From NCBI GenBank assembly GCA_963796215.1, contig CAWCKU010000020.1, positions 29,030 through 93,029 on the forward strand: 64,000 nt of DNA. The letters run 5' to 3'. The notes beneath the pieces are model-generated. The model saw only the letters and a program-made list of their open reading frames with translations, was not told the origin of the DNA and did no database searches. Shown in pieces: positions 26,022 through 63,322 of the stretch (positions are counted from its first letter, which is position 1; each line of letters starts with the position of its first letter). The stretch is from an uncultured delta proteobacterium (GTDB lineage: Bacteria; Desulfobacterota; Desulfobaccia; Desulfobaccales; 0-14-0-80-60-11). The position numbers and the translations under genes are program-made.

Positions 26022-26077
26022 AATTAACCAACAATTAGTAAAATCCAAACCTAATCTTCACAAACTCACGATAGAGT
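26022..26077 (+). promoter_or_regulatory. Pho-box-like array plus -10
   Basis: AATTAAC-4-AATTAGT-4-TCCAAAC-4-TCTTCAC-10bp-TAGAGT. Confidence 0.55.
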
Positions 26078-27041: not shown

Positions 27042-27608
27042 ATGTCTGCTGATTCTACCCCAGCCCTGAAGCGCCAAAGCCGTCTGACCGATGATTTCTT
27101 CTATTTCTTCCTGCGCTTGCGCAAAGACCGCATCCGTAAGGTGGTGGCCGACATCAATGTCCGCTACCCTGAGGAAGCGGTAGAGCAGCGGGCCCGCCGC
27201 CTAATCGAGGCCCAGACCCAGCTTTCCCTCTTGGGAGGGGTGATCCTCGATTTACCCGCCATGATCCCCGTAATCGGGCAGGCCATAAAAATTCTGGGGT
27301 TTGTGGGGGGGACTTCCGCTCTGGTGCGCATGCACCTATACCTCATCCTGGAGATCGCCCTGCTGTACGGCAAGGATATCGACGATGAGGAACGGGTTCC
27401 GGAGATGGCAGCAGTGGTGGCCGGCACCGGCGTGGCGGTTGGCGCTCCCTTCGTGGCCGACGCTCTGGGGTTCCATCCTCTGGTGGCTATGGCCACCGGG
27501 GCGGTGGCGGCCTTGACCACGTCCCGCTTGATCGGCGAAAGCGCCATCCGCTACTACAGCCAACCGCAGGAAGTTGCCCCGAACCCAACCGTTGAACCAG
27601 CCACCTGA
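27042..27608 (+). CDS. EcsC/DUF697-like protein
   Basis: Small-residue-rich hydrophobic segments, PAMIPVIG and LILEIALLYG. Confidence 0.55.
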   Translation: MSADSTPALKRQSRLTDDFFYFFLRLRKDRIRKVVADINVRYPEEAVEQRARRLIEAQTQLSLLGGVILDLPAMIPVIGQAIKILGFVGGTSALVRMHLYLILEIALLYGKDIDDEERVPEMAAVVAGTGVAVGAPFVADALGFHPLVAMATGAVAALTTSRLIGESAIRYYSQPQEVAPNPTVEPAT

Positions 27609-27834: not shown

Positions 27835-28677
27835 ATGGATTCCATTACGGCAGACTCAACCCTTTTTCCCCTGGCCGGCGCCGCTGATGAAGAAGCTACG
27901 GGAGCCTATTCTGGTTCGAAAAGGTCCATTAAGATTATCGCCCGCCGGGTGAACTTCTTTTATGGAGGCCAGCAGGCCTTAGCCGATAATAACATGGAGG
28001 TTGCCCGTAACCGGGTGACGGCCATCATTGGGCCTTCCGGCTGCGGTAAATCCACGCATATCCGCATCTACAACCGCATCTACGAGCTTTATGGAGAGCA
28101 GCAAGCCACCGGCCAGATATTGCTGGACGGTAAAGATATCCTGGACCCCTCCTATGACCTCATGGAACTGCGCCGCAAGGTGGGGATGATCTTCCAGAAG
28201 CCCACCCCCTTTCCCATGAGCATCCTTGACAACGTGGCCTATGGGCTCAAGATGCACTATCGCCTGAGGCGGGGCGAAATCATGGACCGGGTGGAAGAGG
28301 CGTTAACCCAGGCGGCCATCTGGGATGAAGTGAAGGACATTTTGCACCACTCGGGGACGGCCCTGTCCGGCGGCCAGCAGCAGCGGCTGTGTATCGCCCG
28401 GGTCTTGGCCATGGAACCGGAGGTGTTATTGATGGACGAGCCCACCTCGGCCATTGATCCCATTGCCACGGCCAAGATCGAGGAATTAATCCATACTCTG
28501 AAGTTGACCTATACCATCGTCATCGTGACTCATAATATGCAGCAGGCGGCGCGGATTTCCGATTATACCGCCTTCTTCTGGCAGGGGAAGATCTTTGAGT
28601 CCGGCCCGACCCAGAAAATCTTCACCAACCCCTCGCATAAAAAAACCCAAGACTATATTACCGGCCGTTTTGGTTGA
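27835..28677 (+). CDS. pstB: Phosphate ABC transporter ATP-binding protein (no pstS/pstC/pstA in window)
   Basis: [46 protein letters not shown] and DYITGRFG. Confidence 0.93.
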
Positions 28678-30301: not shown

Positions 30302-32712
30302 TCATTGAGCTTGATTAAAGGAAACAGCTTTCCCCTCATACATCTTCCAGGCGGCCTGGAAGGCGGTTTCAAAGGAACGCTGCTTGACGTGATGCCGGGC
30401 CGCCTGGCCCATCTTCCTTAATCTTTCCGGATCGGCCAGCAACCGGCTGATGGCGTTGTAGAGGCCCGCTTCATCGTCGCCGGGAACTATGATCCCGGTT
30501 TCACCGTCGCGGACATTCTCTTGCGGCCCCCCGGAATCGGTGACAATGACCGGGAGACCCGAAGCCTGGGCTTCTAAAACGACATTGCCGAAGGTATCCG
30601 TGGTGCTGGGAAAGACAAACAGATCGCATGAGGCGTAGACCTCGGCGAGCTCTTCTCCAGCCAGGTAGCCGGTGAAGACGCAGGAAGTGGCCGCCAGTTC
30701 CCGCCGCATCTCTTCCAAGTAGGGGCCGTCTCCCACGACTATCAATTTTAGGTCCGGATGGCTGGGTGCCAGGGTCTTGAAGACCGTGGCCAGGAGCTGC
30801 AAATTTTTCTCCTTGGAGACCCGGCCCACATAAAGAAGTTTTGGACCCTCCTTGACCTGATACCGCTTCTCCAGGACGCCGTTGCGCTTGGCCGGATGGA
30901 ACCGCGCCACATCCACTCCCCGGGGATAAAGGCGGATTTTCCGGGGTCGATCCCTCTCTGGTGCAATTCTTCAGCGGTGCTGCCGGAGGGTGCAAAGACC
31001 AGATCCATCTGATTGTAAAACCAGATGAGGTACTTCCACATCAGCTCTTCGATGCCGGCATCACCCGTTAAATATTGGGCATATTGAGGCAAAGCGGTGT
31101 GATAAGTGCTCCAGATCGGCAGGCCCAAAATCCGGGCGACCCCTAAAGCCGCCAGCCCCATGGGGCCCGGGGTGGCGGTCTTGATGTGGGTAAAATTCTG
31201 CTCATAACAATAATTGAGGATCTCCAAAAAAGGCGGATGGAATAGTTTCTGTTCGGGGTATTCCGGTAAATGAAAGACCCCGATGGGAGCGAAGTTGCGA
31301 ATCCCTTGCTGCTGCGGCCGGGCCTCGGTATCGCAGGTGATGATGGTATACTGCTTATCGGTTTTGATGGCGGCCTCGACCTGGCGCCTGAGGGTGAGTC
31401 CCACGCCGTTGACCTCATAGAAGGTGTCGGTAAAATGAGCCAGGTTGATCTGATCTATCTCATCGGCGCCTACCGATTCCTGCTTGAAGGAATGACGAAT
31501 TATTTGCTGCCCCAAGTTTCTGTCCTTGGAGAAAGAAGAGAACGAGGCAAAATAGGGAGTCAACCCTAAATAGATTATTCCGGATGAGGTGATGGAATTA
31601 ACTAAATCGATGAAATTGACTTCAGTCAGGGCTTTGCGAAAATGTCCGTGAAATTGTTTAATGATATTAATAGAGATATCATTAAGTATTCCGAACCACT
31701 GCGCCCCTGGCTTATTAGGCGATCCATTTTGTGGTATTTTAGTGGTCTCATTTAATATTAAAGATAAAAGCGTGTCATCTTGATTATTCTTCTGAGAATT
31801 CCTGAAATATAGTTTAATCTTATTACGATAATATTGATATCTGGTTAATTGGTTTTTGGGCTCTAAGTTGTTCTGCAGGAATCTCTCGAAAAAGCTGATA
31901 AAAAGACTGGAGTCGGCGTACCTGCCCAGGTCGTATTTATTTTTATAGAACTGATAGGCGATACTATACAGATTGTGGGCCAGGGTTAAGGGGGTGGAGG
32001 CCTGTCCTGTGGGCCTGGCCTTGCCGGAATCGAGGCCATGAAAAAAATGTCTTAGGTCCAGGGCTCCTGCCACCTGGGTAAACATGCGGGCGATATTCAG
32101 AGAACTATGGTCATCGGAACCGCCGGTAAAATTCTTCTGCCAGGGGTTATGAAAACCTGGCACGATCCCATGTTTATCCGCCAGGGCGCTGAAATCTGCC
32201 GGACTGAGTTGAGATAACCCCAGCTTTAACAATTCGTTCAAATGGGTGTCCCGGGCTCCATTCAGTTCAAAATTCTTGAAGAGCAGCAGGAATTTTTCGA
32301 AATGAACCGGGGCCAAGCGATCGTTGACCGCCCAAAAGGGATGGGCCAAACTATGGGGAATGCCTCTCTCCTGCAGAAAGTTGACTAAATCAAAGATATT
32401 TTCCCGGATTTTCTGGATGTCTCGATGCTGTTCTTCATTGATATCATAGACCAACACGTGCGCTTTGCAGCGGTCCTCCGGGAAATAGGTGGTCACTTCC
32501 TCGCTGATAAAGGTGTCCGGGAGGCCGGCGATTTCCAAACAGCCATCGATGACATTGTGGTCCGTAATGGTTACCAGGGACATACCTTTCTTCTTGGCCA
32601 GGCGGTAAAGAGTTTGGGGTTCGGTATAACATTCTTGACAGCCCAACTTTTGCAGGACCCATTGGGAGGGTCGGGTGGAGAATTTGGAATGAACGTGCAG
32701 GTCGATCTTCAT
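30302..32712 (-). CDS. PHP metallophosphoesterase fused to a GT4 glycosyltransferase (one frameshift near 30925)
   Basis: N-terminal IDLHVHS, ITDHN, LAHP and GGSDDH; C-terminal FTDTFYEVNGV, ATPGPMG, YHTALPQY, YVGRVSKEKN and DTFGNVVLEAQASG. Confidence 0.85.
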
Positions 32713-32735
32713 AATCCCTCCTTTCTTTAGTAAAA

Positions 32736-33422
32736 TTAGGTGATTAAGACGGTTTCCCCAGCCCGGACCTTGTCTCCCGGCTGGACCATGATAAACATCT
32801 CGGGCCGGAATGGCACCACCAGGTCAACTTGCGAGCCGATGCGGATCATGCCAAAGACCTCGCCCTTGGTGACCCGCTCTCCCGGGTTAAAATAACTATC
32901 AATCCCCTTGACGCTCTTCCCGGCGATTTGGACCACGTAATAAGAGATCGTCTCTCCTCTAAATTGGCCCGCCATCTTTGTCACGGTCCGCTCATTGGTG
33001 ACAATGTGCCGGGAATTCTCATAAAAAGGCAGGCGCTTCAGCACGGTGCGCCAATGCATCGGGGCCATGCAATAGTTCTTCGCTTGGGCGGGATGATGCC
33101 GGATAAAATCGATCTTGCCGGCCAGCGGGGCACGGTTGTAGTGGACGCTGAAGGGGCTCATGAAGATGCCGATCAGGATCTTGGGAACAGCCAAATCTTC
33201 CCGGACAATGTCGGTGAGAGTCGCCCGCAACCCCTGCTTGATCGTGATCACCTCTTGCCGGGGCTCCACCTTACTGACGTACACCACGGTGCCATCGGCG
33301 GGGCTGACGAGGCTCTCTCCCGGGGGCGGGACCCGGAGGGGATTGCGGAAGAACCAGATGTACCGCCAGTAAAGATATCCTGCCAGTAGGGTCAACAGTA
33401 GGAATATGGCCAAATAGGTCAA
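32736..33422 (-). CDS. psd: Phosphatidylserine decarboxylase-family proenzyme
   Basis: FFRNPLR, SPADG, IFMSPFSVHYNRAP, GSQV autocleavage site and GDKVRAGET. Confidence 0.85.
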   Translation of the reverse strand: MTYLAIFLLLTLLAGYLYWRYIWFFRNPLRVPPPGESLVSPADGTVVYVSKVEPRQEVITIKQGLRATLTDIVREDLAVPKILIGIFMSPFSVHYNRAPLAGKIDFIRHHPAQAKNYCMAPMHWRTVLKRLPFYENSRHIVTNERTVTKMAGQFRGETISYYVVQIAGKSVKGIDSYFNPGERVTKGEVFGMIRIGSQVDLVVPFRPEMFIMVQPGDKVRAGETVLIT

Positions 33423-34120
33423 TGGAGTTTTTTCCAGGCAGAGGGGTCCAAGACCCGCACCAGGGCGACACCCGAAGAAAACGGGAAATCGATCACCTCA
33501 AAATTTTCCTCTTGCCCTTTGATGAACTTCAGCCATTTCTTCACCCCCGCATGCTTGATCAATTCCCGCAGGTAAATGTTGGTATCGTGCAGGAAGATAT
33601 AAGTATTCTTATGTGATTGCTTTAGGACTTCCAAAAAATCGTATTTGACATCTTTATAGGCATGGCTGCCGTCGATGAAAGCCAGATCGATGCCAGGCAG
33701 GTTGAGATTCTGATAGGCTGGGAAAAACTCATCGTTGCGCACTTTGTAATGGGTGACGAGGTTTTCCACCCCAAAGTGTTCAAAATGGGCCTTAACGGAA
33801 GACTCATCCGTCCAGATGCCCCGCCCGCCTACGGTTATGAGGGGCCCATTCTTTAATAAAGAATAAGCGGGATCGACAAAACTCAACTTGCCACGGGTGT
33901 TATCCTTTAACCCCAAGGCCAAGCAGACCACACTGAAACCATATCCTGAGCCGATTACCAAGACATGCTTAGGTCTTAAAGCCCTTACCAACCCGTAATA
34001 AATAAATCCGAAACCTAAATTCAACTCCTTAACCTTTTCATTGTGACCGAATGGTTTGGCAACTTGCAGGATATCTTTGAGAAGATCATGACTTAAGCTA
34101 AAATCTCCCATTAGCCGCAA
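33419..34120 (-). CDS. Class I SAM-dependent methyltransferase (Methyltransf_24-like)
   Basis: LVIGSGYGFS, DLAFIDGSHAY and IFLHD; ATGA overlap with psd. Confidence 0.8.
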   Translation of the reverse strand: MRLMGDFSLSHDLLKDILQVAKPFGHNEKVKELNLGFGFIYYGLVRALRPKHVLVIGSGYGFSVVCLALGLKDNTRGKLSFVDPAYSLLKNGPLITVGGRGIWTDESSVKAHFEHFGVENLVTHYKVRNDEFFPAYQNLNLPGIDLAFIDGSHAYKDVKYDFLEVLKQSHKNTYIFLHDTNIYLRELIKHAGVKKWLKFIKGQEENFEVIDFPFSSGVALVRVLDPSAWKKLH

Positions 34121-34402: not shown

Positions 34403-34753
34403 TTAACCTGAATTCACCTCCACACCATTCGGCAGGCCATTTAGGATAACCTCGCGGACTATGGCGCCGACTTCCTTCCGCAAGGCCCCCAAGCAGGTTT
34501 GCCCTTGCGGGGTGAGCTCGTAATATTTGCGGGCCCGCCCTTTAAAAATCCTGATCCGGGAATGCAGGAGATTGGCCTTTTCGAAGGTGTGCAGCAGGGG
34601 GTAGAGGCTTCCCGGGCTGATCTCATAGCCCTGGTTATGCAAGTATTTGCTCAACTTGCCCCCATAGATCGGCCCCAGACCGGCCTGATGCAGGACAACG
34701 AGTTTGACCATGCCCTGCCAAAATGTATGGGAGATCTGCTTTCCTAAATCCAT
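34403..34753 (-). CDS. PadR-family transcriptional regulator
   Basis: PIYGG...ISPGSLYPLLH...RKYYELTPQG. Confidence 0.88.
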   Translation of the reverse strand: MDLGKQISHTFWQGMVKLVVLHQAGLGPIYGGKLSKYLHNQGYEISPGSLYPLLHTFEKANLLHSRIRIFKGRARKYYELTPQGQTCLGALRKEVGAIVREVILNGLPNGVEVNSG

Positions 34754-34816
34754 ATATCGGATACTGATATATATCTGTTAGGAAATGATTAAGGTCTCAT
34801 TGATTTTTGGTTAAAT
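34754..34816 (-). promoter_or_regulatory. Probable PadR operator (imperfect palindrome ATATCGGATACTGATAT) plus a four-unit 11-bp array
   Basis: Minus strand ATTTAAC-4-AATCAAT-4-CCTTAAT-4-TCCTAAC at 34816-34777. Confidence 0.55.
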
Positions 34817-34859
34817 TATCATTACTTTTTGCCGATCCAAGCCAATATCTTAAAGGAGG

Positions 34860-35159
34860 ATGGCCATGGCCATTTTGGATAACGGTTTTAAGGGCGCGGT
34901 GCCCAGCATTCTGGTGGTGTTAGGGGTGGCCCTGGCGGCCCCCATCGTTCTCCCCGCCGTGGCGGCGGTGTCCCGGCCGTTGGCCAAGACCTTAATCAAG
35001 GGTTATCTGGTCTTGTCCGACATGGCCAAGGAGTTTGCCGCAGAAACCGGCGAGCAGATCAGCGACCTGGTGGCCGAAGTCAAGGCCGAACGCGATGCCG
35101 CCGTGGCAGCTGAGGTGGCGGCTGAGCCGGAAACCAAGCCGGCCAAAGTAAAAAGTTAA
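34860..35159 (+). CDS. DUF5132-like small membrane protein
   Basis: Hydrophobic N-terminus, then RPLAKTLIKG...AETGEQISDLVAEVKAE. Confidence 0.75.
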   Translation: MAMAILDNGFKGAVPSILVVLGVALAAPIVLPAVAAVSRPLAKTLIKGYLVLSDMAKEFAAETGEQISDLVAEVKAERDAAVAAEVAAEPETKPAKVKS

Positions 35160-35180
35160 CGAAAGCTCTGGGAGCCGCGG

Positions 35181-35753
35181 ATGGAAATCGAGGGCCTCAA
35201 AGTCGTCCATGCCCTGCCCGGCCGGGTGCGTCTCAGGGTCGCCAGGGTGAAGGGCAACCCGGCCCTGGCCCGCCAGGCCCAGGAGAGGCTTGCCCAGGTG
35301 CCGGGAATCCGACAGGTTGAGGCCAAACCTGGCACCGGCAGCCTCCTGATCCATTACGACACGGAGCGTTTACTCTCCCTGGCCTCCCTGGAAATCCTGT
35401 CGGCGACCTTGGGGGAACTCTTTCCCGAGATTGAGGTCGCCACTCTGATGGCCGGGCTGTTGTCGCTGACGGAAACCCCCGGCGCTAGGACCGGGTCGGC
35501 CATGGCCGTGGGCATCACCGATTCTTTCGGGGCCATCAATACAAAATTTGGGGAAATTACCGGAGGTCTCGACCTCAAACTACTGGCGCCCCTGGCCTTG
35601 ATCTTCTTCGGCTTACGCGGGCTGTGGATCTCTGAGAAGGTCCTCTCCCCTTCCTGGTCTAACCTGCTCTGGTTTGGCTTTGCCAGCTTTGTCATGCTGA
35701 ATCGCGGCCTGGTGGAAGGAAACAGCGGGGTTCCTGCGGAAAGAAAAGTCTGA
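35181..35753 (+). CDS. HMA2/CoBaHMA-domain protein with C-terminal membrane hairpin
   Basis: VVHALPGRVRLRV...TGSLLIHYD; C-terminal DLKLLAPLAL...PSWSNLLW. Confidence 0.8.
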   Translation: MEIEGLKVVHALPGRVRLRVARVKGNPALARQAQERLAQVPGIRQVEAKPGTGSLLIHYDTERLLSLASLEILSATLGELFPEIEVATLMAGLLSLTETPGARTGSAMAVGITDSFGAINTKFGEITGGLDLKLLAPLALIFFGLRGLWISEKVLSPSWSNLLWFGFASFVMLNRGLVEGNSGVPAERKV

Positions 35754-35863
35754 TTGGCTCAAATTATGGGCGGTTTACCGCAGCATTGCAGGCGGGACCC
35801 TTTTCTTGTTCTTAAAAGGATATTCGAGGTATTCCGCGCCACAGTCCCGGAATTTCACCTCCA

Positions 35864-36052
35864 TCAACCCTGAGGCGCCGAGGGGTTGGCAGAGTAAAGA
35901 TGGCGCAGGGACTGGCCCCTTTTTTCGACTACGCTCCTGATAACCGAATCCTTAACAAGGCTGAAGACCTGGAAAAAAACCAGGGAGCGAAGCCAATAGC
36001 GGACCAGAAAACCCAGGATCGCCCCAATCATCAAGCAGATAACATACCACAT
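35864..36052 (-). CDS. Small membrane protein
   Basis: MWYVICLMIGAILGF; RBS GGGAGG. Confidence 0.5.
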   Translation of the reverse strand: MWYVICLMIGAILGFLVRYWLRSLVFFQVFSLVKDSVIRSVVEKRGQSLRHLYSANPSAPQG

Positions 36053-36076
36053 TGAGCCCTCCCTTGCGGGACCTCC

Positions 36077-36466
36077 TTAAATCAAGGCGCCGACCAGCCG
36101 GCTCAGAGCGACTTCCATCAGGGTGGCCGCCACGGTGGCAGTCACTTTTTCCACCACTCCGTGCGGGGCTGCGGCTGGATTATTTTCGCCGCTACCCCTT
36201 TGACTGGGTTGAGACAGATACCCCACCTCTTTTAAGGAAGAGATGATGTCCTCCTGCTCAATGAGGCGGGAATTGTATAGGATCAGAACGTTCCCGGTGG
36301 TGGGATTGGCGGAAACATACTCGATCCCGGCAGCCTGCCGCAGGTGGCGCTCCACTTCCTGGGCCTTCCTGGCCGACCCCTTAACCTTGGGGACCTTGAT
36401 CCGGAGCCTACCTTCCAGGGCGTGAACATATAAAGAATCCACATTCATGATAGTCAATGCCTCCAA
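36077..36466 (-). CDS. HMA2/CoBaHMA-domain protein
   Basis: YVHALEGRLRIKV...ANPTTGNVLILYN. Confidence 0.8.
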   Translation of the reverse strand: MEALTIMNVDSLYVHALEGRLRIKVPKVKGSARKAQEVERHLRQAAGIEYVSANPTTGNVLILYNSRLIEQEDIISSLKEVGYLSQPSQRGSGENNPAAAPHGVVEKVTATVAATLMEVALSRLVGALI

Positions 36467-36488
36467 TTCAGTCAGTCTGTTGTGGATT

Positions 36489-36544
36489 ATTTTTACCGCT
36501 GAAAGTTATGATTTAATATTATTAATGTTAGAATTTGGTTAATT
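36489..36544 (-). promoter_or_regulatory. Pho-box-like array
   Basis: Minus strand AATTAAC-4-TTCTAAC-4-ATAATAT-4-TCATAAC followed by TAAAAAT. Confidence 0.55.
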
Positions 36545-36751
36545 TTGCCTAATGCCTTAGAGTATCAGGAAAATATCATTTATCCGCCGGGCTTCATTCT
36601 CGGGAAAAACCCTTTCCAAAATATCCGCTATATGGCAAACTATCAACAAATGACTCAATCGCTGCCAGCGTCTGCGCCTCATCATGCCAATCTGCCCTTG
36701 AAAGATGCTGTTTACCTTCATCAACTCCAATTCAATAAAGGAAGGGGGCAC

Positions 36752-38053
36752 ATGAAAAAAATTTATATTTTGGATACCAACGTTTTATTGCACGATCCGG
36801 AATCCTTATTTTCTTTCGAAGACAACTCCATAGTTTTGCCGCTTTCAGTGATTGAGGAATTAGACCGCACCAAGAGGAGGGGGGATGAGGTGGGCAGAAA
36901 TGCCCGGGACGCATCCAGAAAGTTGGATGAATTGAGGCTGACGGGTCGTCTGGCGGAAGGGGTCGAACTCCCCAGCGGCGGCTCCGTCCGTATTGAATTA
37001 AACGGCATCAAAAATTACGACCTGTTGCACGGGGTCGATTTGAACACCGTTGATAATAGAATCCTGGCCCTGGCCTATCATCTCATGAACAGTGAAAATA
37101 GCCCGGTGGTGCTGGTTACCAAGGATTTAAACCTGCGCATCAAGGCAGATGTTCTGGGGCTCTCGACCGAGGATTTCTACAGCGATAAGGTCGATTATTG
37201 TAAGTTATATACCGGCGTCCACGAATTATATCTTTCTCAGCCGGAGATAGACCGGTTCTATCAAGATGGCTGCCTTGATTTTGGTCAGGATAATCTTCAT
37301 CCCCACCAGTTCTGCATCCTTAAGTCCCATGAAAACCCCTCCATCTCGGCCTTGGCAAGGTTTAGTGATAATAAACTCAACAGACTCTCATATGACGGCA
37401 AGATGGTTTACGGCATCAAAGGACTGAATAAGGAGCAGAAATTTGCCCTGGAACTGTTGCTGGATGATCGCATCAAGATCGTCACTTTAGTCGGTAAGGC
37501 CGGGACCGGCAAGACCATCCTGGCGTTGGCTGCCGGTCTGGAAAGAGTTTTTGAGGATAGCGGGAAATACAACCGGTTGCTGATAACCAGGCCGATTGTT
37601 CCGTTAGGCAACGACCTGGGTTACCTTCCCGGAGATAAAGAAGATAAAATCAGGCCCTGGATGCAGCCGATTTATGACAATCTGGAGTTTCTTTGTAATG
37701 AGCATATCCGGCCCAATGGCTCCACGGAATACTTGCTCACCAGCGGCAAGATCGAACTGGAGGCTTTGACTTATATCCGGGGCCGCAGCATCCCTCGCCA
37801 GTTCATTATCTGCGACGAAAGCCAGAATCTCAGCCCCCATGTGATCAAGACCATCCTGACCCGGGTTGGCCGGGGCAGCAAGATCGTCTTCACCGGGGAC
37901 CCGGAACAGATCGACCACCCCTATTTGGACGCCTCTTCCAATGGCTTGAGTTATTTGGTGGAAAGAATCAAAGAAGAAGGAATTTCCGGGCACATCACCC
38001 TGATCAAGGGGGAAAGGTCCGGCGTCGCTGAATTGGGGGCCAGATTGTTATAA
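36752..38053 (+). CDS. PhoH2 (PIN domain plus PhoH ATPase)
   Basis: ILDTNVLLHDP, DNRIL, VTKDLNLRIKA, GKAGTGKT, LGYLPG, YIRGRS, DESQN and GDPEQID. Confidence 0.92.
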   Translation: MKKIYILDTNVLLHDPESLFSFEDNSIVLPLSVIEELDRTKRRGDEVGRNARDASRKLDELRLTGRLAEGVELPSGGSVRIELNGIKNYDLLHGVDLNTVDNRILALAYHLMNSENSPVVLVTKDLNLRIKADVLGLSTEDFYSDKVDYCKLYTGVHELYLSQPEIDRFYQDGCLDFGQDNLHPHQFCILKSHENPSISALARFSDNKLNRLSYDGKMVYGIKGLNKEQKFALELLLDDRIKIVTLVGKAGTGKTILALAAGLERVFEDSGKYNRLLITRPIVPLGNDLGYLPGDKEDKIRPWMQPIYDNLEFLCNEHIRPNGSTEYLLTSGKIELEALTYIRGRSIPRQFIICDESQNLSPHVIKTILTRVGRGSKIVFTGDPEQIDHPYLDASSNGLSYLVERIKEEGISGHITLIKGERSGVAELGARLL

Positions 38054-38182
38054 GTAGTTCGTAGTTCCTTTAGCTACCTCTGTAGGTGATTTTTCCCACC
38101 GGGGTCTTACCGCGATTTCCTCCCCGCAGTCCCTCTATCGTTTGGCGATATATGTCGCCGTATCATTATTGTATGCAGTGAA

Positions 38183-38227
38183 TTTAGACATATCTTTAAC
38201 ACGTTCCTAACATTTTGCGTTTATGCT
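38183..38227 (+). promoter_or_regulatory. Pho-box-like array plus -10
   Basis: TTTAGAC-4-CTTTAAC-4-TCCTAAC-10bp-TATGCT. Confidence 0.62.
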
Positions 38228-38258
38228 GGTTTGGCTAAATTAGAAGAGGAGAACGAAC

Positions 38259-38546
38259 TTGGAGGACATCGAAATCATCGCCTCGCGGCCGGGCCAGCTC
38301 AGTCTGGCCATAGCCAGAGTGAAAGATAATGACGCCCTGGCGCGGGAGGTGGAGTATCGTTTTGGGGCCATCAGTGGGATTCACCAGGTGGAGGCGGACG
38401 CGGTCCAGGGACTGGTGTTGATCGACTATGATAAACAGCGCTTGTCCTCCCTGAGCTTTCTGCTCCAACTGAAGGAGGCCTTTTCCGCCCTATTTCCTGA
38501 AGTCAGCGCCACCCAACTGGCTGCCTCGATAAGTCGCAGTCTTTGA
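38259..38546 (+). CDS. Degenerate HMA2/CoBaHMA-domain protein
   Basis: ARVKDNDALARE...GIHQVEADAVQGLVLIDYD...LFPEV closely parallels the 35181 N-terminus. Confidence 0.7.
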   Translation: MEDIEIIASRPGQLSLAIARVKDNDALAREVEYRFGAISGIHQVEADAVQGLVLIDYDKQRLSSLSFLLQLKEAFSALFPEVSATQLAASISRSL

Positions 38547-38630
38547 AAGTCTTTCTTAACCCCGCCTTGGAGGCCCGTTCGATCGCTGGAAGTATATCTT
38601 TAAATTACTATCTTATAGGTAACCAAATTT

Positions 38631-39320
38631 ATGGAGGTCCTTATGTCCCCCCCGGAAACTAAAGAGAGCAAGGGTATTGGGGAAATGCTGGGCGAAGCCG
38701 GTACCACCGTGAAGGATGGCATCGTCGGCAGCCTCAAGGGTTTGAGCGAGATCGAAGCCCAGATCGTCAGTCTGGCCCGCAACACCGTGACCGACGTCCT
38801 GAAGGGCACCGGCAGTGTGGCCAACGAAACCATCAATGTCAGCAAGGACGTCTTCAAAGGGGCCCTAAAGGCCACTGAAGAAGTCGGCACCAGCCTGCTG
38901 GTGACCACCAAGGACGTGGCTAAGGGCATTCTCCTGGGCGTTGCCGACGTGGGCGGCGATGTAGAGAAGGCCGCCGGCCAACTGGCCAAAGGCGCGGTCA
39001 AAGGCGCCGCGGAAGTCGGTGGAGATGTGGCCCAGGTGGCCAAAAGCGCGGTTACCGGCGTAATCGAAGCTACCCGTGAGATCGGCGGCAATGTGGGCGA
39101 GGCCACGAAATCGGCGGTGGGCGGCGCCATCGAAGCCGCCGGAACCCTGGGGCAGTCGGCGGTCAAGGCCGTCAGCGACATCCTGGTGGGCGCGGTTTCG
39201 GGCCTCAAGGAAGTGGCTTGCGCGGCGTGGCCGAAGTCAAAGGCAGAACCCGAGGCCCCTCCGGAGACCAAGCCGGCCCCCGAAGCCGAGAAAAAGCCGG
39301 TTAAGGGCAAAGGCGAGTAG
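38631..39320 (+). CDS. Gly/Ala/Val-rich protein of about eight tandem 22-aa repeats
   Basis: VAKGILLGVADVGGDVEKAAGQ / LAKGAVKGAAEVGGDVAQVAKS / AVTGVIEATREIGGNVGEATKS and similar units. Confidence 0.8.
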   Translation: MEVLMSPPETKESKGIGEMLGEAGTTVKDGIVGSLKGLSEIEAQIVSLARNTVTDVLKGTGSVANETINVSKDVFKGALKATEEVGTSLLVTTKDVAKGILLGVADVGGDVEKAAGQLAKGAVKGAAEVGGDVAQVAKSAVTGVIEATREIGGNVGEATKSAVGGAIEAAGTLGQSAVKAVSDILVGAVSGLKEVACAAWPKSKAEPEAPPETKPAPEAEKKPVKGKGE

Positions 39321-39523
39321 CGCCACGGCCGCCGGCGGCTCAGTTGGGTAGGGCGAGCGTCCCTGTTCACCGCGGCTGTCTCCATATTGCAATTTCAGAC
39401 TAAATCGGCGGCCCTGGGCCGCCCTGTTGGTAATTTTGGTGCGTAGGGCGCACCCTACGTTTCGTCTTTGTCAGTCCTTACTAGCTACTGACTACTGACT
39501 ACTTGACTACTGGCAACTTTCAG

Positions 39524-42500
39524 ATGGTCGAAGCGATACATACCGCCGTGGCGGGAAGGGCGAGGTTTAAGGTCGAGGGCCTGTACCGCTCAAAGTCCCT
39601 GGAGAAGCAGCTTGAGTGGCGTCTGGCGCGGCTGCAGGATATTTCCCTGGCCTCGGCCAATGCCCTCACCGGCAATGTCCTGGTCTGCTACAATTCAGGC
39701 AACACCCCGCAAACCATCGCCGCCTTAATCGAAGGGATCGTCTCCGAGTGCCAGAGCCAACCCCAACCTGCCCCTTCAGTTCCTGTCCGAGTAAGATCCA
39801 AGGCCGGCGCCGAGCCGGAAGATCAGGCCGGCGTCTTAGACCGGTTCAGGGGCCTCTTTACCTATCCGGCGGAGCAGCCGGCGGAGCCCTGGCATCGGCT
39901 GGAAGCCGAGGCGGCGTTAGCCAAGTGGCAGACTTCCCGGGAAACGGGTTTATCCCTCCAGGCTGTCCAGAGAAATCGCCAGAAATACGGCTCTAATATT
40001 CTGCCGGAAGCCGAGCCCCGATCCGGTTGGGAAATTTTTTTGAGTCAATTCAACTCCCTCCCGGTGGCCCTCCTGGGCGCGGCCGCGGGTCTTTCCATCG
40101 TCACCGGGGGGATGGTCGACGCCGTGCTGATCATGGGCGTGGTGGTCGCCAATGCCTTCATCGGCTATAAAACCGAAAGCGAATCCGAAAAGACCATTCG
40201 CTCCCTGCAAACCCTGGTGCGGCCCGCAGCCCTGGTCATCCGGGAAGGCCGGTTTGGCGAAATCCCTTCCGAAGAAGTGACCCCGGGAGACCTCCTGGTA
40301 CTCCGTCCCGGCAGCTATGTGGCTGCTGATGCGCGCTTGCTAGAGGCCAGCCACCTGTCCGTGGATGAGTCGGCTCTGACCGGGGAAAGCCTGCCGGTAA
40401 CTAAAAACCCCCAGGTCTTGGAACAAGAAAACATCCCCCTGGGAGATCGGCTCAACCTGGTCTTTATGGGCACTCTGGTTACCGGCGGCGAAGGTCTGGC
40501 GGTGGTGGTGGCCACCGGAAGTTATACCGAAATCGGCCTGATCCAGTCTCTGATCGGCGAAGCTTCCAGCCCGGAGACCCCCCTGGAAAGACAGCTTGGC
40601 CAGTTGGGCGACCAACTGGTCCTGCTCTGCCTTGGCATCTCCGGAGTGGTGTTTGTCATGGGGTTCGCCTGGGGCTATGGTTGGTTGGAGATGCTGCGCA
40701 CCTCTATCTGCCTGGCTGCGGCCGCGGTGCCGGAAGGCCTGCCCGCCGCGGCCACCACCACCCTGGCCCTGGGCATCCGGGACATGCGCAAGCACCATGT
40801 CTTGATCCGCCATCTGAATGCGGTGGAGACCTTAGGGGCGGTGCAGACCGTTTGCCTGGATAAGACCGGGACCATCACCCGCAATCAGATGTCCGTGCTC
40901 CAGATCTTTACCGGCATGAAGACCATCCGCGTGGCGGAGAATGGGCAATTCAGTGGGCCGGAAGGGCTGATTGAACCTTTTACCTGTGAAGAACTGGAAC
41001 AACTCCTCCAGATTTCCGTGCTGTGCAACGAAATTGAAATTTATCAGGAAGGCGGGGATTATGTCCTGCGGGGGACCCCCACGGAAGGCGCCCTGGTGCA
41101 CCTGGCGATCCTGGTGGGCCTCGACGTCACTGACCTGAGGGCGCGCTATCCCTTGCTGAGGGTGAATCACCGCTCGGAAAACCGCCTGTTTATGGGCACG
41201 CTGCATGATGATCCACCCGCCGGGAAACTTTCTGCCCTCAAAGGCAGCCCGCTGGAAGTTCTGGCCATGTGCTCCTGGCATCTCCAGGATGGCCGGAAAT
41301 TGCCGCTAACCGAGGAAGACCTGCAGCGCATCGAGGCTGAGAACGAGGAGATGGCGGGGCGGGCCCTGCGGGTCCTGGGGCTGGCCTATGCCCTGGGTCC
41401 TGATGAGTCCGTCTTTGAGGAGCTTGACGGCCTGGTCTGGCTGGGCATGGTGGGCATGGCCGATCCCATCCGGGAGGGGGTGGGCGAAGCGATCCGGGCC
41501 TTCCACCGGGCGGGGATCGAGACGGTGATGATCACCGGCGACCAGAGTCCCACCGCCCAGGCCATCGGCCAGGAACTGGACCTGAGCCAGGGGGACCCCT
41601 TGGAAATCCTGGACGCCACCCATCTGGCGGAGATCGAGCCGGATGTCTTGCGGGCCCTGGTCAAGAGGGCCCAGGTCTTTGCCCGCGTCAGCCCATCCCA
41701 TAAGCTGCAGATCGTCCAGGCCTTGCAGGGGGCCGGCAAGGTGGTGGCCATGACCGGCGACGGCATCAACGACGGCCCGGCCCTCAAGGCAGCGGACGTG
41801 GGCATTGCCATGGGCCGGACCGGCACCGATATCGCCCGGGAAGTGGCGGACGTGGTCCTGGAGAAAGACAACCTCGATACCCTGATCATCGCCATCCGGG
41901 ATGGCCGCACCATTTATCTTAATATCAGAAAGTCGGTGCATTTTTTCCTGGCCACCAATCTGAGTGAAATCATGTTGACCTTTACGGCCATTGCCGTGGG
42001 ACTGGGGTCGCCGCTGACCGCGGCCCAGCTCCTATGGATTAACCTGATCTCCGACATCTTCCCCGGATTGGCCCTGGCCATGGAGGCGCCGGAGCCCGAT
42101 ATCCTGGAGCGCCCGCCCCGCGATCCCCAAAGACCGATTTTCACCGGCTGCGGACTTCAAGAGGATGGCCTTTGAGTCCGGGGCGATCACCGCCGGGGCT
42201 CTTGGGGCTTATGGCTATGGCATGATGCGCTACGGGGGAGCCGCGGCCAGTACCATGGCCTTTCATAGCCTCACTACCGGGCAGCTTCTCCACGCCATCA
42301 GTTGCCGCTCGGAAACCCACACCATTTTTAGTCCCGGAGAAATTGCCTCCCAACCGGTACCTGACTATGGCCCTGGGGGGCTCATTGGTCATGCAATTCT
42401 TGACCATGGTGGTTCCCGGACTGAGAAGTCTGTTGGGTCTGGCTCCGGTGGGCCTCCTGGATGGCCTGGTAATTTCCGGCACCGCCTTGCTCCCCTTGGT

Positions 42501-42591
42501 GGTGAATGAAGCTACCAAAAAACCACCGGTTAATGGGGTAAATGAGGTCCAGGAATCCAGCCTCGGAGTGAGCCAAAAAAGGACTCATTGA
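39524..42591 (+). CDS. P2A-type (Ca2+/Mn2+-like) P-type ATPase with N-terminal HMA2/CoBaHMA domain (frameshifts near 42145 and 42340)
   Basis: IHTAVAGRARFKV N-domain; TGES, VPEGL, DKTGT, GDGIND, M5 TNLSE and M6 WINLISD. Confidence 0.9.
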
Positions 42592-43790
42592 TGAAAAATG
42601 ACTTTATCTTCATGTCGGAGTCGGTAACCGAGGGGCATCCGGATAAGATGTGCGATCAGATCAGCGATGCCATCGTGGATCATTTCCTGGAACAAGACCC
42701 CCAGGCCCGAGTGCGCGCCGAATGTGCGGTGGCCACATCCATCTTGTTCATTGCCGCCCGGTTTGTCTCCGAAATTAAAGTCGATATCCCCAATGTGGCC
42801 CGCAAGGTCATCGGCCGGCTCGGTTACCTGCAACCGGACTTCGACGCCCGCACCTGCAGTATCTTAACCAGCCTGCAGGAGTATCCGTCGGATACGGACC
42901 TCTTTTTCAACGAGAACCAACTCTCCGAAGCAGAGATAGATAAGCTGCATGTGAGGCAACATGCCACTGCTTTCGGTTTTGCCTGCCGCCAGACCGCGGT
43001 CCTGATGCCCCTGCCCATCTGGTTGGCACATAAACTGGTCCGGCAGATGGACAGTGCCCGAGGTCAGAAACTGATCCCCTACCTGTCTCCGGACGGCAAG
43101 GCCCTGGTGGGCGTGGAATATAGGGATCGCCGGCCTTACCGCATTTATAGCCTTACAGTCGTCGCCAGCGGCTCCAGGGCGGCCGGCCATGAGGTCACCG
43201 ACCAGCGCTTGCATAACGACATTCGCGAAGCCGTGATCAAACCAGCCTTTGCCGATGAGGACATCAAACCGGACGACCGCACCCTGATCTTTATCAATCC
43301 ACTGGAACATCTCATGGTGGGCGGCCCGGGGGTGCATTCCGGGCTCACCGGCCGTAAGACCGACGTGGACACCTACGGGGAATATGCCCGCCATAGCGGC
43401 AACGCCTTGAGCGGCAAGGACCACTTGCGGATTGATCGAGTGGGGGCTTATGCGGCGCGCTATGCCGCTAAAAATGTGGTGGCAGCCGGCCTGGCGGAGG
43501 AATGCGAGGTCCATTTGGCCTATTCCATCGGCTTTTCCCGGCCAGTCAGTATTCAGGTGGAAACCTTCGGCACCGGCAAGTTCTCCGATGACGAGCTTTC
43601 CACCTTGCTGGAGCGTCACTTCGATTTTCGCCTGGCCGCCATTCTGCGGGATTTTAACCTGAGGCACCTTCCCGCTCTCAATAAAGGCCGCTTTTACCGC
43701 AAGCTGGCGGTCTATGGCCAGGTGGGGCGTCTCGACCTTAACTTGCCCTGGGAAGTTACCGACAAGGCCGAGATTCTCAAGGAACGTTAG
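42588..43790 (+). CDS. Divergent methionine adenosyltransferase (MetK) paralogue
   Basis: SESVTEGHPDK, GLTGRK and SGKD present; GAGDQG signature replaced by HVRQHA. Confidence 0.88.
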   Translation: MMKNDFIFMSESVTEGHPDKMCDQISDAIVDHFLEQDPQARVRAECAVATSILFIAARFVSEIKVDIPNVARKVIGRLGYLQPDFDARTCSILTSLQEYPSDTDLFFNENQLSEAEIDKLHVRQHATAFGFACRQTAVLMPLPIWLAHKLVRQMDSARGQKLIPYLSPDGKALVGVEYRDRRPYRIYSLTVVASGSRAAGHEVTDQRLHNDIREAVIKPAFADEDIKPDDRTLIFINPLEHLMVGGPGVHSGLTGRKTDVDTYGEYARHSGNALSGKDHLRIDRVGAYAARYAAKNVVAAGLAEECEVHLAYSIGFSRPVSIQVETFGTGKFSDDELSTLLERHFDFRLAAILRDFNLRHLPALNKGRFYRKLAVYGQVGRLDLNLPWEVTDKAEILKER

Positions 43791-44456
43791 ATGCACATCT
43801 CCCATTTATTGATCATTTTATTGCTGGCTATATCCTGCAACCTGGACAACGTTGGGGTGGGTATCGCTTACGGGGCTCGAGGGATCGGCATCCCCCTGGG
43901 GTCAAATCTCTTGATCGCCCTGGTCACGGCCGCAGGCACCGGGCTCTGTATCATTTTCGGGCAGCGAATCTTCCAAGTCTTGCCTGCCGAGGTTGGCGTT
44001 CTTTTGGGAGCCGTGTTGTTGGTCGGCATGGGGGTCTGGGTCATCCGCCAGGATATCGGCGAACGGAGCCGCCAGGACCAAGAGACCCCAGCCACAGGCC
44101 CCGCTGATGAGTTGGCCCAAAAGTCGTGGCTACGGCGGCTCATCCTGATCCTGCAACATCCGGTCCTCGCTGACCGAGACTCCTCGGGTCACATTGATTT
44201 AAAGGAAAGTCTCCTGCTGAGTATGGCCCTCATGCTAAACAATGTCCCCAACGGCGTTGGAGCCGGGCTGCTGGGGCTGTCGACCTGGCTCACCACCTTG
44301 TTGGTAGGGCTCCTGAGCGTGCTCACCTTCTGGGTGGGAATCGGCCTGGGCCGGAGTCTCGGGGTGCGCTGGCTGGGCCGGTACGCCGGCACGGTTTCCG
44401 GCCTGTTGCTCGTGGTTATCGGTTTGGTCGAAATGGTCCTGGCAATACAGTTTTAG
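43791..44456 (+). CDS. MntP/YtaF-family membrane protein (putative Mn2+ exporter)
   Basis: [31 protein letters not shown] and ALMLNN. Confidence 0.8.
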
Positions 44457-44476
44457 CCCAGCGAAGAGAGAGACAC

Positions 44477-44902
44477 ATGGAAAAAGCCAGAGTTCTATTC
44501 CTTTGCACCCATAATACTGCCCGGAGCCAAATGGCCGAGGCCTTCCTGAGATCGTTCGCCGGCGACCGCTTTGAGGTCTTCAGCGCCGGCACCGAACCGA
44601 GGGAGATTGATCCCTATGTCAAACGGGTGATGTCCGAAGTCGGCCTTGATCTTAGTAATCAGCGGTCCAAGAGCGTGGTGGAATTCCTGGGCAAAATGAC
44701 CGTTGCCTATCTAATCATCGTTTGCGAAAAGGTGGAGGAAAACTGCCCGATAACCTTCCCCGGCTTTAGGTATCGGCTGTACTGGCCCATTGAAGACCCG
44801 GTGGCTTTTGCCGGCTCGGATGAACAAAAGCTGGAAAAGTTCAGAGCAGTGCGGGATTGGATAGCGGACCGGCTAAAATTGTGGTTGCGTGAATTGGACT
44901 GA
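44477..44902 (+). CDS. arsC: Thioredoxin-type arsenate reductase / LMW phosphatase
   Basis: [22 protein letters not shown] and WPIEDP. Confidence 0.85.
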
Positions 44903-44963
44903 GATAAATTTCTCCAGGGATCGAGTTTAGGAGTACAGTTTTAATATTAGAAAATGAGGCTAT

Positions 44964-45650
44964 ATGGCTCACGAAAACATTTTAGTGGTGGAAGATGACG
45001 AGGACATCCTGGAACTACTCAGGTACAACCTGGCCAAGGAGGGCTACCGGGTAACCGCGATTACCTCGGGGGAAGACGGATTGCCACTCGCCCGCTCGAC
45101 CACCCCGGACCTGATCTTGCTGGATTTGATGCTCCCCGGGATAGACGGGCTGGAAGTCTGCCGGCGGCTCAAAATGGACCCCAAAACCCGGCAGGTGCCG
45201 ATCATCATGCTCACCGCCAAAGGGGAAGAAACGGACATTGTCACCGGTCTGGAGTTGGGGGCGGAGGACTACATCACCAAACCCTTCAGCCCCCGGGTAT
45301 TGCTGGCCCGTATTCGCACGGCGCTCCGACGCCACGGCGCGGCTACGCCAGGAGAGGATGCCCTGCTAAAAATCCATGACCTGACCATCAACCCCGGCCG
45401 CCACGAGATTCTGGTTCAGGGGAAATCTGTGGACTTGACGGCGGTGGAGTTCCGCCTCCTGCACCTGTTGGCGCGGAGGCCGGGCTGGGTGCTGACCCGG
45501 GCTCAGATTGTCGAAGGCGTGCATGGCGAAGACTATCCCGTCACCGACCGGGCTGTAGACGTAAAAATTGTCTCCCTCCGCAAGAAGCTGGGTCTCGCGG
45601 CCGAGTACATCGAAACGGTTCGAGGGGTGGGTTATCGCTTCAAAGACTGA
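44964..45650 (+). CDS. PhoB-like OmpR-family response regulator (no cognate kinase in window)
   Basis: LVVEDD, LLDLMLPG, LTAKGEE, DYITKPF, DRAVDV and IETVRGVGYRF. Confidence 0.88.
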   Translation: MAHENILVVEDDEDILELLRYNLAKEGYRVTAITSGEDGLPLARSTTPDLILLDLMLPGIDGLEVCRRLKMDPKTRQVPIIMLTAKGEETDIVTGLELGAEDYITKPFSPRVLLARIRTALRRHGAATPGEDALLKIHDLTINPGRHEILVQGKSVDLTAVEFRLLHLLARRPGWVLTRAQIVEGVHGEDYPVTDRAVDVKIVSLRKKLGLAAEYIETVRGVGYRFKD

Positions 45651-46275
45651 CTGATTGAGACTTTTTGGCTGGGATTTTCGGCCATCTCTGCCGCAGCCAG
45701 ATTCCCCGGATAAGGAAATAAGCCAAGATAGAGGTGGCGATTAACCCGGCCGCCATTTGGCCATGGCCGCCAATCCGCTCCACAAGGAGGCCCGCTTCCC
45801 GGCCCCAAAGATATCCCAAGAAAATATAGCCCAATGACCAGGCCAGGGCCCCCGCATAAGCAGACCGGATAAAGTCTGCCAGCGGGAATCTGGTGATCCC
45901 GGCGGCTATGGCTACCCAGTGCCGGACCCCCGGAATGAAGTATCCCAGGAATAACAGCCAACCGCCGCAACGGCGGAGCCGCTCTTCCAGCCTCTTAAAC
46001 TTGTCGGGCTTGATAGAGCAATAAACCCCGGCCTCCCTGATCAACTTGGCGCCTGCCGCTCTTCCCAGCCAATAATCCAGCGTTATTCCCAGGATGGCGC
46101 CCGCCACGACCACCGCTAACGCCGGTATTAGCCGCAAGTCTCCCCGCAGCACCAGATAGCCGATAAAAGTCAATAATAGTTCATCGGGGACGGGAATGCC
46201 GAAGGTCCCCGGCGCCAGCAAGAGAAAAATCGCCAGATATCCGTGCTGGGAAACAAAATAAGTTATGAATTCCAT
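45640..46275 (-). CDS. DedA-family membrane protein
   Basis: GIPVPDELLL, YWLGR and FIPGVRH. Confidence 0.88.
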   Translation of the reverse strand: MEFITYFVSQHGYLAIFLLLAPGTFGIPVPDELLLTFIGYLVLRGDLRLIPALAVVVAGAILGITLDYWLGRAAGAKLIREAGVYCSIKPDKFKRLEERLRRCGGWLLFLGYFIPGVRHWVAIAAGITRFPLADFIRSAYAGALAWSLGYIFLGYLWGREAGLLVERIGGHGQMAAGLIATSILAYFLIRGIWLRQRWPKIPAKKSQSVSL

Positions 46276-63224: not shown

Positions 63225-63322
63225 TATTCGTTCTCCCACCGGCCAATCGTTAAGCTTGGCGGCCCGGATCGCCCTAAACCGGGATTCCCGAGATAGACCA
63301 TATTCTCTTACCTCTCTCACCG

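Follow-up and report, generated by a model that had tools for sequence, protein, structure and literature searches.

A conserved gene cluster joining a CoBaHMA-headed P2A ATPase to a MetK look-alike in an uncultured Desulfobacterota bacterium and in other phyla

Ferrosome (fez) clusters assemble GxxxG and arginine-rich (R-rich) proteins around a P1B-6 pump; their products include FezA, FezB and FezC, with FezB recognized by D[Y/F]SCA in membrane segment M4 and HNxxT in M6, and ferrosomes appear once starved cells regain iron (Grant and Komeili, 10.1101/2020.01.10.902569). PacL1 of Mycobacterium tuberculosis, which has one membrane helix followed by glutamate/alanine (E/A) repeats, binds the N-terminal region of the P-type ATPase CtpC, and zinc efflux takes place at membrane foci (PMC9374683). 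In Microcystis aeruginosa PCC 7806, two DUF5132 and two CoBaHMA genes flank ccyA (10.1101/2024.07.07.602159). An extra first strand is the hallmark of the CoBaHMA domain (PMC8890360), whose role has been called hypothetical and for which anionic-lipid binding has been hypothesized (10.64898/2025.12.07.689555). Besides the added strand beta0, such an HMA fold is marked by a His ahead of beta1, by basic residues and by the lack of CxxC. Here we describe a gene cluster with related parts in a 64,000-nucleotide stretch of DNA (the window) from an uncultured delta proteobacterium of the Desulfobacterota, whose assembly of 3.7 Mb is 84.6% complete.

The cluster is a real, conserved gene unit. Its core consists of a DUF5132 protein, HMA_2 (PF19991) proteins, a 22-residue repeat protein, a P2A ATPase with a CoBaHMA head and a look-alike of the methionine adenosyltransferase (MAT) MetK; PF19991 was treated as the CoBaHMA domain throughout. 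The assembly holds four HMA_2 matches and a single DUF5132 match, all of them in this cluster (Table 1). Every gene that a first-pass annotation of this DNA had named was present where it had placed it, and its identifications of DUF5132, PhoH2, MetK, YtaF/MntP, an ArsC-like protein and a PhoB-like regulator held. PhoH2, MntP/YtaF, ArsC and PhoB, which it had counted as members, proved to be local extras, rare in distant loci (10 of 17 related regions have the PhoB-like regulator within the cluster). The overlapping or abutting stop and start codons that it reported were seen as TGATG between ATPase and MetK and as TAGATG between MetK and YtaF. A layout as one operon was rejected because padR and the soluble CoBaHMA gene ending at 36466 sit on the minus strand.

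Table 1. Features of the cluster and its surroundings (positions within the window)
Feature	Position	Strand	Remarks
PEMT/ICMT-like gene	26494-26883	+	
Class I methyltransferase, PS-decarboxylase-like and PHP-GT4 glycosyltransferase operon	30302..34120	-	Box near 34244 (~), rank 2
PadR-family regulator	34403..34753	-	Divergent from DUF5132; family-level extra; 13/17 relatives, 1/80 distant loci
Four TTAAC-type repeats at 11-bp spacing	34772..34815	-	Between padR and DUF5132; Pho-box-like
DUF5132 protein	34860..35159	+	PF17195, E 3e-8; PacL/FezA-like architecture; core
CoBaHMA protein with hydrophobic C-terminal segment	35181..35753	+	PF19991, E 3e-21; FezC-like layout; core; family in 42/126 loci
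Hydrophobic GxxxG micropeptide, ~21 codons	35990..36052	-	Start of open reading frame (ORF) 35864-36052
Small soluble CoBaHMA protein	36077..36466	-	PF19991, E 9e-12; core; family in 45/126 loci; likely start ATG at 36448
Pho-box-like repeats	36500..36543	-	Upstream of soluble CoBaHMA gene; top score in genome-wide scan
PhoH2 (PIN + PhoH)	36545..38053	+	Local extra; 10/17 relatives, 4-5/80 distant loci; true start likely near 36755
Pho-box-like pair	38196..38212	+	Upstream of the run from 38259 through repeat protein and ATPase to MetK; one mismatch
Degenerate CoBaHMA protein	38259..38546	+	PF19991, E 4e-7; kept in relatives
22-residue repeat protein	38631..39320	+	No Pfam family; frequent core member (25/80 loci)
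CoBaHMA-headed P2A ATPase	39524..42591	+	LMCA1/SPCA1/SERCA nearest; two frameshifts
MetK look-alike	42591..43790	+	MAT fold, methionine pocket basic; core; start overlaps pump stop
YtaF/MntP-family membrane protein	43791..44456	+	Local extra; 11/17 relatives, 0/80 distant genome loci
ArsC/LMW-phosphatase-family protein	44477..44902	+	Local extra; 2-3/80 distant loci
OmpR/PhoB-family regulator	44964..45650	+	Assembly's best PhoB match; no kinase adjoining
DedA gene	45640-46275	-	11-bp repeats upstream

Conservation was followed in several sets of loci. A pump search of genomes gave 597 confirmed loci, the best 80 of which were kept; they come from Thermodesulfobacteriota, Nitrospirota, Cyanobacteriota, Pseudomonadota, Acidobacteriota and others, and gene presence in them was scored by tblastn. 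The alignment of the MetK look-alike, used as query against metagenomes, gave 591 loci, the best 80 of which were kept (73 MetK-like, 11 of these without upstream room; 6 with canonical MetK; 1 unclassified). The combined set held 126 pump-plus-MetK-like loci, 69 of them at least 10 kb long. Close comparison used 17 related regions and 40 kin genomes, the kin being mutually not independent. The closest named homologues of the window belong to Thermodesulfobacteriota and Nitrospirota.

The pump and the MetK look-alike are tightly linked, a coupling that the first-pass annotation had missed. Among genome loci with at least 400 bases downstream of a headed pump, the look-alike lay behind it in 49 of 55; pumps without a detected head and with room on both sides had one behind them in 2 of 10 loci, both broken. 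Conversely, 59 of the 62 MetK-like metagenome loci with room have an upstream pump (57 adjacent and 2 one gene further; the other three are L154, L142 and L169), against 0 of the 6 loci with canonical MetK. The MetK paralogue was present in 57 of the 80 genome loci, DUF5132 in 37 and the repeat protein in 25. A natural pump-MetK fusion was rejected: in L014 and L068 the candidate is a long stretch that stays open in a different frame, and in L040 it is a truncated join. In the kin set, 26 of 40 genomes carry the paralogue. Thirty kin occurred in both the MetK and the HMA_2 searches; all 20 with the paralogue have at least three HMA_2 matches and all 10 without it have none or one, counts that come from kin and are not independent. 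The unit is gained or lost whole, and the first-pass expectation that these genes stay together in other genomes was borne out by the gene-neighbourhood survey.

The pump was assigned to the P2A class by the first-pass annotation, and the motifs on which this rested (PEGL, TNLSE, WINLISD and a Gln in M8) were all found in the window, with site II complete. The structures nearest to the intact pump of a relative are LMCA1 (PDB 9EUQ/6ZHF), SPCA1 and SERCA (E 6e-148 to 1e-118). For ion-site residues we take SERCA assignments and numbering to apply. Across 68 full-length members, filtered by length, DKTGT and head motif, the M4 Glu is kept in 67, the M5 Asn in 68 and Glu in 67, and in M6 the Asn in 68, Ser/Thr in 67 and Asp in 67; at M8, 61 members have Gln and 6 have Glu, and a His follows three residues on in 67. 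DKTGT, TGES, GDGxND and the site II residues are present in 67 to 68 of the 68. With a complete site II and a partial site I, the pump likely moves one Ca2+ or Mn2+ per cycle. The M4 Glu and M6 Asn/Asp are common to the cluster pump and LMCA1/SPCA1/SERCA; the cluster pump differs in its extra CoBaHMA head and in an M5 that keeps both Asn and Glu, and where LMCA1 has Arg at M8 it has Gln plus the family His (67/68). The best NCBIfam models are TIGR01522 and TIGR01116, with the truncated window ORF falling below the PMR1-type and SERCA-type equivalog cut-offs.

That truncation reflects two breaks in the reading frame within the last 450 bases of the gene, also missed in the first pass, which put M7 to M10 in two other frames. 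Compared with 8 of 8 relatives, single bases have been added in the window near 42150 and near 42332. The frameshifts are likely assembly errors, since 12 of 17 related regions hold the pump as one uninterrupted frame (in the remaining five it is split at other places) and since the neighbouring GT4 gene and a second P2A pump on contig C18 are likewise split in this assembly.

The pump head was predicted to fold as beta0-beta-alpha-beta-beta-alpha (E3-7, E13-18, H25-36, E41-47, E52-57, H63-79; predicted local distance difference test [pLDDT] 91), with the extra first strand of CoBaHMA, and PF19991 matches it, in line with the CoBaHMA N-domain proposed for it. Its best structural matches mix the HMA domains of ATP7B, CopZ and ZiaA with RNA-polymerase Rpb11-type folds, none at E<=0.001. 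An R-rich (RxR) motif is found on the head and the helper proteins, and PF19991 covers the pump and three helpers. In 50 pump heads the H, G, R and R are invariant, heads having been chosen by that motif. The first pass had listed four cysteine-free domains with HxxxGRxR-type motifs. The three free HMA_2 proteins do lack Cys; the pump head has one Cys and no CxxC. PF19991 matches all four copies, and that at 38259 is degenerate, as had been noted, having lost the His and both Arg.

The MetK look-alike is the most distinctive part of the cluster. It passes the TIGR01034 cut-off, and its predicted MAT fold (pLDDT 91) has a TM-score of ~0.88 to E. coli MetK (PDB 1FUG/7LL3). A housekeeping MetK, 38% identical to it, is encoded on contig C21. 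Residues were compared in 52 full-length copies including that of the window, with E. coli numbering assigned by alignment. D16, K17, E42, R244, K245 and K265 are invariant, H14 is kept in 49, D271 in 51 and K165 in 42, and D163 is kept along with the catalytic triphosphate and metal residues; in MetK, residues of this set serve as triphosphate, Mg or K ligands. The first-pass annotation had overlooked that the rest of the active site is rebuilt. In MetK, E55, Q98, D238 and K269 are methionine ligands (PMC3853416, PMC1282579). In the look-alike, E55 is R, H or K in 52 of 52 copies, D238 is H in 52 of 52, K269 is R in 52 of 52 and Q98 is replaced mostly by L or M (also Y). The window copy thus has all four replaced, whereas 6 of 6 canonical MetK controls keep all four. 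F230 is retained in 21 of the 52. The look-alike therefore shares with E. coli MetK the fold, the TIGR01034 match and the triphosphate and metal residues, and is set apart by its swapped methionine pocket, its variable F230, its place behind a pump and its coexistence with a canonical metK. A quick MetK tree with a single outgroup had a weak backbone.

These substitutions bear on what the look-alike may do. Archaeal MATs swap carboxylate ligands yet keep the D238 equivalent (PMC3853416). Since that equivalent is here a His, SAM (S-adenosylmethionine) synthesis is unlikely. The two acids that hold the amino group have turned basic, and the pocket would suit an anion such as a further phosphate. 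Hydrolysis of triphosphate or polyphosphate is the best-placed activity, close to an even call; a role as a sensor subunit of the pump appears unlikely, and a transferase for another nucleophile ranks after it as doubtful. In our literature search no paper was found on a metK paralogue with a P-type ATPase or on tripolyphosphatase mutants of MAT.

The enzyme could instead be the center of the cluster, adenosylating a non-methionine anionic nucleophile or still making SAM for nearby methyltransferases, with the pump merely supplying or removing metal for a small biosynthetic or signaling pathway. All catalytic triphosphate and metal residues plus D163 are kept, the archaeal enzymes show that carboxylate ligands can be swapped (PMC3853416), and SAM-dependent methyltransferase genes lie at 33419 and 26494. 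This explanation is nevertheless quite improbable: the adenine-stacking F230 survives in just those 21 copies, no recurrent tailoring or export genes were found among the neighbours, and the 26 of 26 relatives with the paralogue each have a canonical metK match as well (a second match near 40% identity).

In the family of the repeat protein (30 ORFs) hydropathy has a period of 3.66, identity peaks at offsets of 22 (0.22) and 44 (0.18) over a baseline of ~0.09, and the composition is A 15%, V 14% and G 14%. The repeat protein is predicted to form amphipathic 11/3 helices, a type known from apolipoproteins and perilipins, and its periodicity makes it a candidate membrane or granule coat. The parallel to the glycine zippers of calcyanin that the first pass had drawn was not upheld for it; the repeat is amphipathic with period 22 and has no glycine zipper and no (GlyZip)3 domain. 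Calcyanin identity was likewise rejected for the cluster, as no (GlyZip)3 protein was found in its loci; a glycine-zipper motif scan of 4366 ORFs from the 80 loci and the window returned one short protein, in L057, a locus without the cluster. None of 39 homologues was informatively named for the repeat, and its Atlas neighbours were unnamed. As a separate observation, the 22-residue repeat is accompanied by a MucR domain (PF05443) in 5 of the 39 homologues and by PF00990 in one (P0004, P0005, P0011, P0022, P0035 and P0032 hold these combinations).

A short ParA (NF041546-like) stands beside the cluster in 7 of 126 loci (L010, L019, L064, L071, L080, L136 and L152), and in 6 of the 7 a small tail-anchored protein comes next, which begins with a basic, disordered segment and ends in a membrane helix; the window has neither. 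ParA-plus-adaptor pairs position organelles (10.1101/2025.09.22.677801); such pairs also partition DNA. ParA and its tail-anchored partner are possibly a positioning system for membrane cargo.

The small membrane proteins raise the main alternative to an intracellular body. By family alignment and hydropathy, DUF5132 consists of a single membrane helix and, after a Pro kink, a helix rich in E and A. The hydrophobic GxxxG micropeptide, absent from the first-pass annotation, was matched in 10 same-genus regions among the 17 related ones and in no distant locus. DUF5132 and the CoBaHMA proteins might stabilize the pump and cluster it in foci of the cytoplasmic membrane that export Ca2+ or Mn2+ with no organelle, holding down free divalent ions whenever phosphate runs short or suddenly becomes plentiful, with the look-alike as a regulatory subunit sensing nucleotide or triphosphate. 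The nearest solved pump relative, LMCA1, is an exporter, and MntP/YtaF, cation-efflux, CAX, CorA and MgtE genes are among the neighbours. In PacL1-CtpC, too, a one-helix membrane protein with an E/A-rich tail is encoded beside a P-type ATPase, and the E/A-repeat protein binds CtpC for zinc efflux at foci (PMC9374683), the layout that DUF5132 shares. Membership in the PacL family itself was not found: the window protein matched DUF5132 and neither DUF1490 nor DUF6110, and has no His-rich tail. We regard such an efflux platform as a serious contender that is on balance somewhat unlikely. The same genome already has an ordinary P2A pump without head or helpers (contig C18), and the amphipathic repeat protein and the occasional ParA-plus-anchor pairs suit a body better than a patch.

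PhoB-type phosphate control of the cluster is likely. Repeats of TTAAC type at 11-base spacing are conserved in relatives before padR/DUF5132 and before the minus-strand HMA gene, and they match the cyanobacterial Pho box CTTAACCT (PMC1906773). A fixed pattern found seven window sites at no more than two mismatches, three of them in cluster spacers, and 35 sites in the genome at no more than one. In a matrix scan built from relatives, 5 of the top 7 sites genome-wide fell in this 20-kb island, a ranking that is partly circular because these same promoters, as found in relatives, served to train the matrix, although the site at 26023 sits on or outside the border of the stretches used for training; the pair at 38196 is absent from the 27 top sites. 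Further afield, Chlorogloeopsis fritschii has a perfect box pair between its two DUF5132 genes, the pstS and repeat-gene promoters of L011 have a box in common, and in distant genome loci the strict pair occurred in 11 of 113 cluster promoters versus 2 of 185 controls. The neighbours include pst, phoU, phoH2 or ppk1 in 18 of 126 loci (15 of the 69 of at least 10 kb), raw counts without a background rate; MgtE, CorA or CAX are neighbours in 13 of 126. The phosphate regulation proposed in the first pass thus has sequence support from the repeats, from the genome's best PhoB match and from pst/phoU/ppk neighbours. A Fur-box reading of the padR-DUF5132 spacer, made by eye against a consensus, was dropped in favor of the 11-bp direct repeats. 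A scan for sigma-70 promoters and terminators, with 14 promoter-like sites against 7.5 expected, was left unused.

The same boxes extend to lipid genes. The methyltransferase-PSD-GT4 operon, the PEMT/ICMT-like gene and dedA form a candidate set for lipid remodelling in phosphate starvation, and the operon adjoins the cluster in 14 of 17 relatives. The pump might supply Ca2+ or Mn2+ to an envelope programme of phosphate starvation, feeding exported phosphatases and lipid-remodelling enzymes while the heads read anionic lipid. The methyltransferase-PSD-GT4 operon and dedA each have boxes upstream, the gene of a CehA/McbA-like metallohydrolase has a weak one, and CoBaHMA has been hypothesized to bind anionic lipid (10.64898/2025.12.07.689555). 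This is improbable; the lipid operon is near the cluster in just 1 to 2 of 80 distant loci, and the repeat protein and MetK look-alike are left without a role.

The reading we tentatively favor, as a leading possibility rather than an expectation, is a Pho-controlled assembly of pump and scaffold that would fill a membrane body with calcium or manganese phosphate. Judging by the 11-bp repeats, a PhoB-type regulator would induce it in phosphate starvation, and the store would be loaded once phosphate is available again, much as ferrosomes fill following iron starvation. The acidic E/A helix of DUF5132 may, by analogy with PacL1-CtpC and FezA-FezB, bind the basic CoBaHMA heads and cluster the pump, and the amphipathic repeat protein may, also by analogy, coat or bend the membrane. 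The residues of the pump suggest that it would move probably one Ca2+ or Mn2+ per ATP from cytoplasm to lumen. In the weakest step, the cationic pocket of the look-alike would bind a triphosphate or a short polyphosphate and hydrolyse it, which would either provide phosphate or signal the phosphate status to the pump. A compartment draws support from the R-rich toolkit common to fez clusters, the DUF5132 and CoBaHMA genes around ccyA, the second P1B pumps that use these helpers in some loci, and the ParA pairs.

Several observations weigh against this reading. Unless re-feeding is invoked, a phosphate store built during starvation is counter-intuitive. The DUF5132 family consensus is Gly-rich in its helix, whereas the window copy has no GxxxG there, and the window's own pump gene is frameshifted. 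Of 41 long MetK-like loci, 17 have the repeat protein and 29 have DUF5132, so that a coat is no general requirement. As to control, the matrix ranking is partly circular, the enrichment of the strict pair is weak in metagenome loci (10 of 66 versus 6 of 76 controls, the six being four distinct sites, two in loci with a PhoB-like gene), no box was seen in the 330 bases inspected at the genome's housekeeping pstS, and the regulator scores 245 bits, under the PhoB cut-off of 296. No ferritin-like, Feo or calcyanin gene was found among the neighbour families scanned. Like parts serve mycobacterial plasma-membrane efflux in PacL1-CtpC (PMC9374683), and C. fritschii PCC 6912, a cluster carrier, has no Ca-carbonate inclusions (PMC8890360).

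Compared with fez clusters, the locus likewise has a P-type ATPase with an R-rich head, a small membrane protein of a family that is Gly-rich in its helix, and soluble and membrane R-rich HMA-like proteins, and both occur mostly in anaerobes. Its pump is instead P2A (PEGL), without the FezB D[YF]SCA or HNxxT, and its context is Pho-box-like where that of fez is iron, the Fez proteins being compared by description. The MetK look-alike and the 22-residue repeat protein are in the cluster and undescribed for fez in the available part of that report. Fez membership was rejected, as the pump has no P1B-6 signature. The ferrosome-like parallel drawn in the first pass therefore stands for the R-rich head and helpers and fails for pump signature and iron context: Feo, Fur and ferritin-like genes were absent from the neighbour representatives scanned (19 + 26), and phosphate and Mg/Ca genes, rather than iron genes, recur among neighbours. 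In 5 of 80 loci (L059, L061, L069, L006 and L010) a second ATPase, of P1B type with an R-rich head region, has its DUF5132/HMA_2 helpers in common with the P2A pump. These pumps are of FezB-like DFGTG/DYGTA or CPC type; three have a D[YF]xxx M4 and no HNxxT, and the three FezB-like loci are 3 of the 6 headed-pump loci without a MetK-like gene.

The ccyA neighbourhood also places DUF5132 and CoBaHMA genes beside a calcium transporter and is linked to intracellular calcium mineral (PMC8890360). The cluster differs in having no (GlyZip)3 calcyanin and a P2A ATPase instead of CAX, and its product would be phosphate where that of ccyA is carbonate. Ca-rich polyphosphate inclusions are abundant in C. 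fritschii PCC 9212 (PMC8890360); the Chlorogloeopsis pattern fits phosphate better than carbonate and proves nothing. By the defining sequence tests, the cluster lies outside fez, calcyanin and PacL, and the look-alike is not a true metK. By analogy, it would work most like a fez or PacL assembly with another pump class and an added enzyme. That it represents a second class of ferrosome-type organelle, a PhoB-controlled, membrane-bounded Ca/Mn-(poly)phosphate store with a P2A pump, an apolipoprotein-like coat, a ParA/adaptor in some lineages and feeding by a MetK-fold hydrolase, is unlikely as a whole. No description of the cluster was found in the literature, a search whose coverage left out the ferrosome preprint supplements and the CoBaHMA paper (10.1002/prot.26668); the headed P2A architecture may already be in print, for example among CoBaHMA-headed P2 ATPases.

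Other genes nearby are recorded as observations. A 635-residue protein (46740-48647, +) begins with a signal-like N-terminus, matches CehA/McbA metallohydrolases weakly and falls in no Pfam family; its gene is preceded by a degenerate 11-bp repeat, and it is a candidate exported phosphoesterase. On the other side lie an orphan pstB without pstSCA (27835-28677, +), an EcsC-like gene (27042-27608, +), relatives of which turn up repeatedly close to the cluster in other phyla, and a small DnaJ-type Cys protein (26200-26451, +) behind the strong box at 26023. By a motif near its start, a 388-residue ORF (62154-63320, -) is a possible amidinotransferase. Elsewhere, PHA-granule-region (PF09650), Usp and EcsC genes accompany the cluster in L045, L048, L064, L071, L080, L148, L174 and L178, mostly gammaproteobacterial where named. 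In 15 of 126 loci (for example L012:15575-15871) a double zinc-ribbon protein of ~100 residues (IS1/InsA-like) is encoded close to the cluster, often adjoining the soluble CoBaHMA gene; it is possibly an unrecognized member.

Isolates with the cluster include C. fritschii PCC 6912 (L033), Nitrosospira sp. Nsp14 and Rivularia sp. UHCC 0363. In a plasmid collection, no MetK look-alike above 47% identity occurred among the best 25 of 147 matches, the repeat protein was not found, one headed pump (Microvirga) was among the best 25 of 197 matches, and the Fischerella ccyA plasmid was not among the matches listed.

The cluster offers a short gene list and named isolates for probing how bacteria build membrane-bounded calcium/phosphate inclusions and what the toolkit of CoBaHMA and small membrane proteins does outside iron storage. 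If the cluster does form a second class of ferrosome-type organelle, it would provide the genes behind Ca-polyphosphate or Ca-phosphate inclusions of bacteria from at least five phyla. Whether or not there is an organelle, the MetK sister family is widespread and scores above the metK cut-off despite its rebuilt pocket; its members are likely mis-annotated, and they indicate that the MAT fold has been put to a new use.

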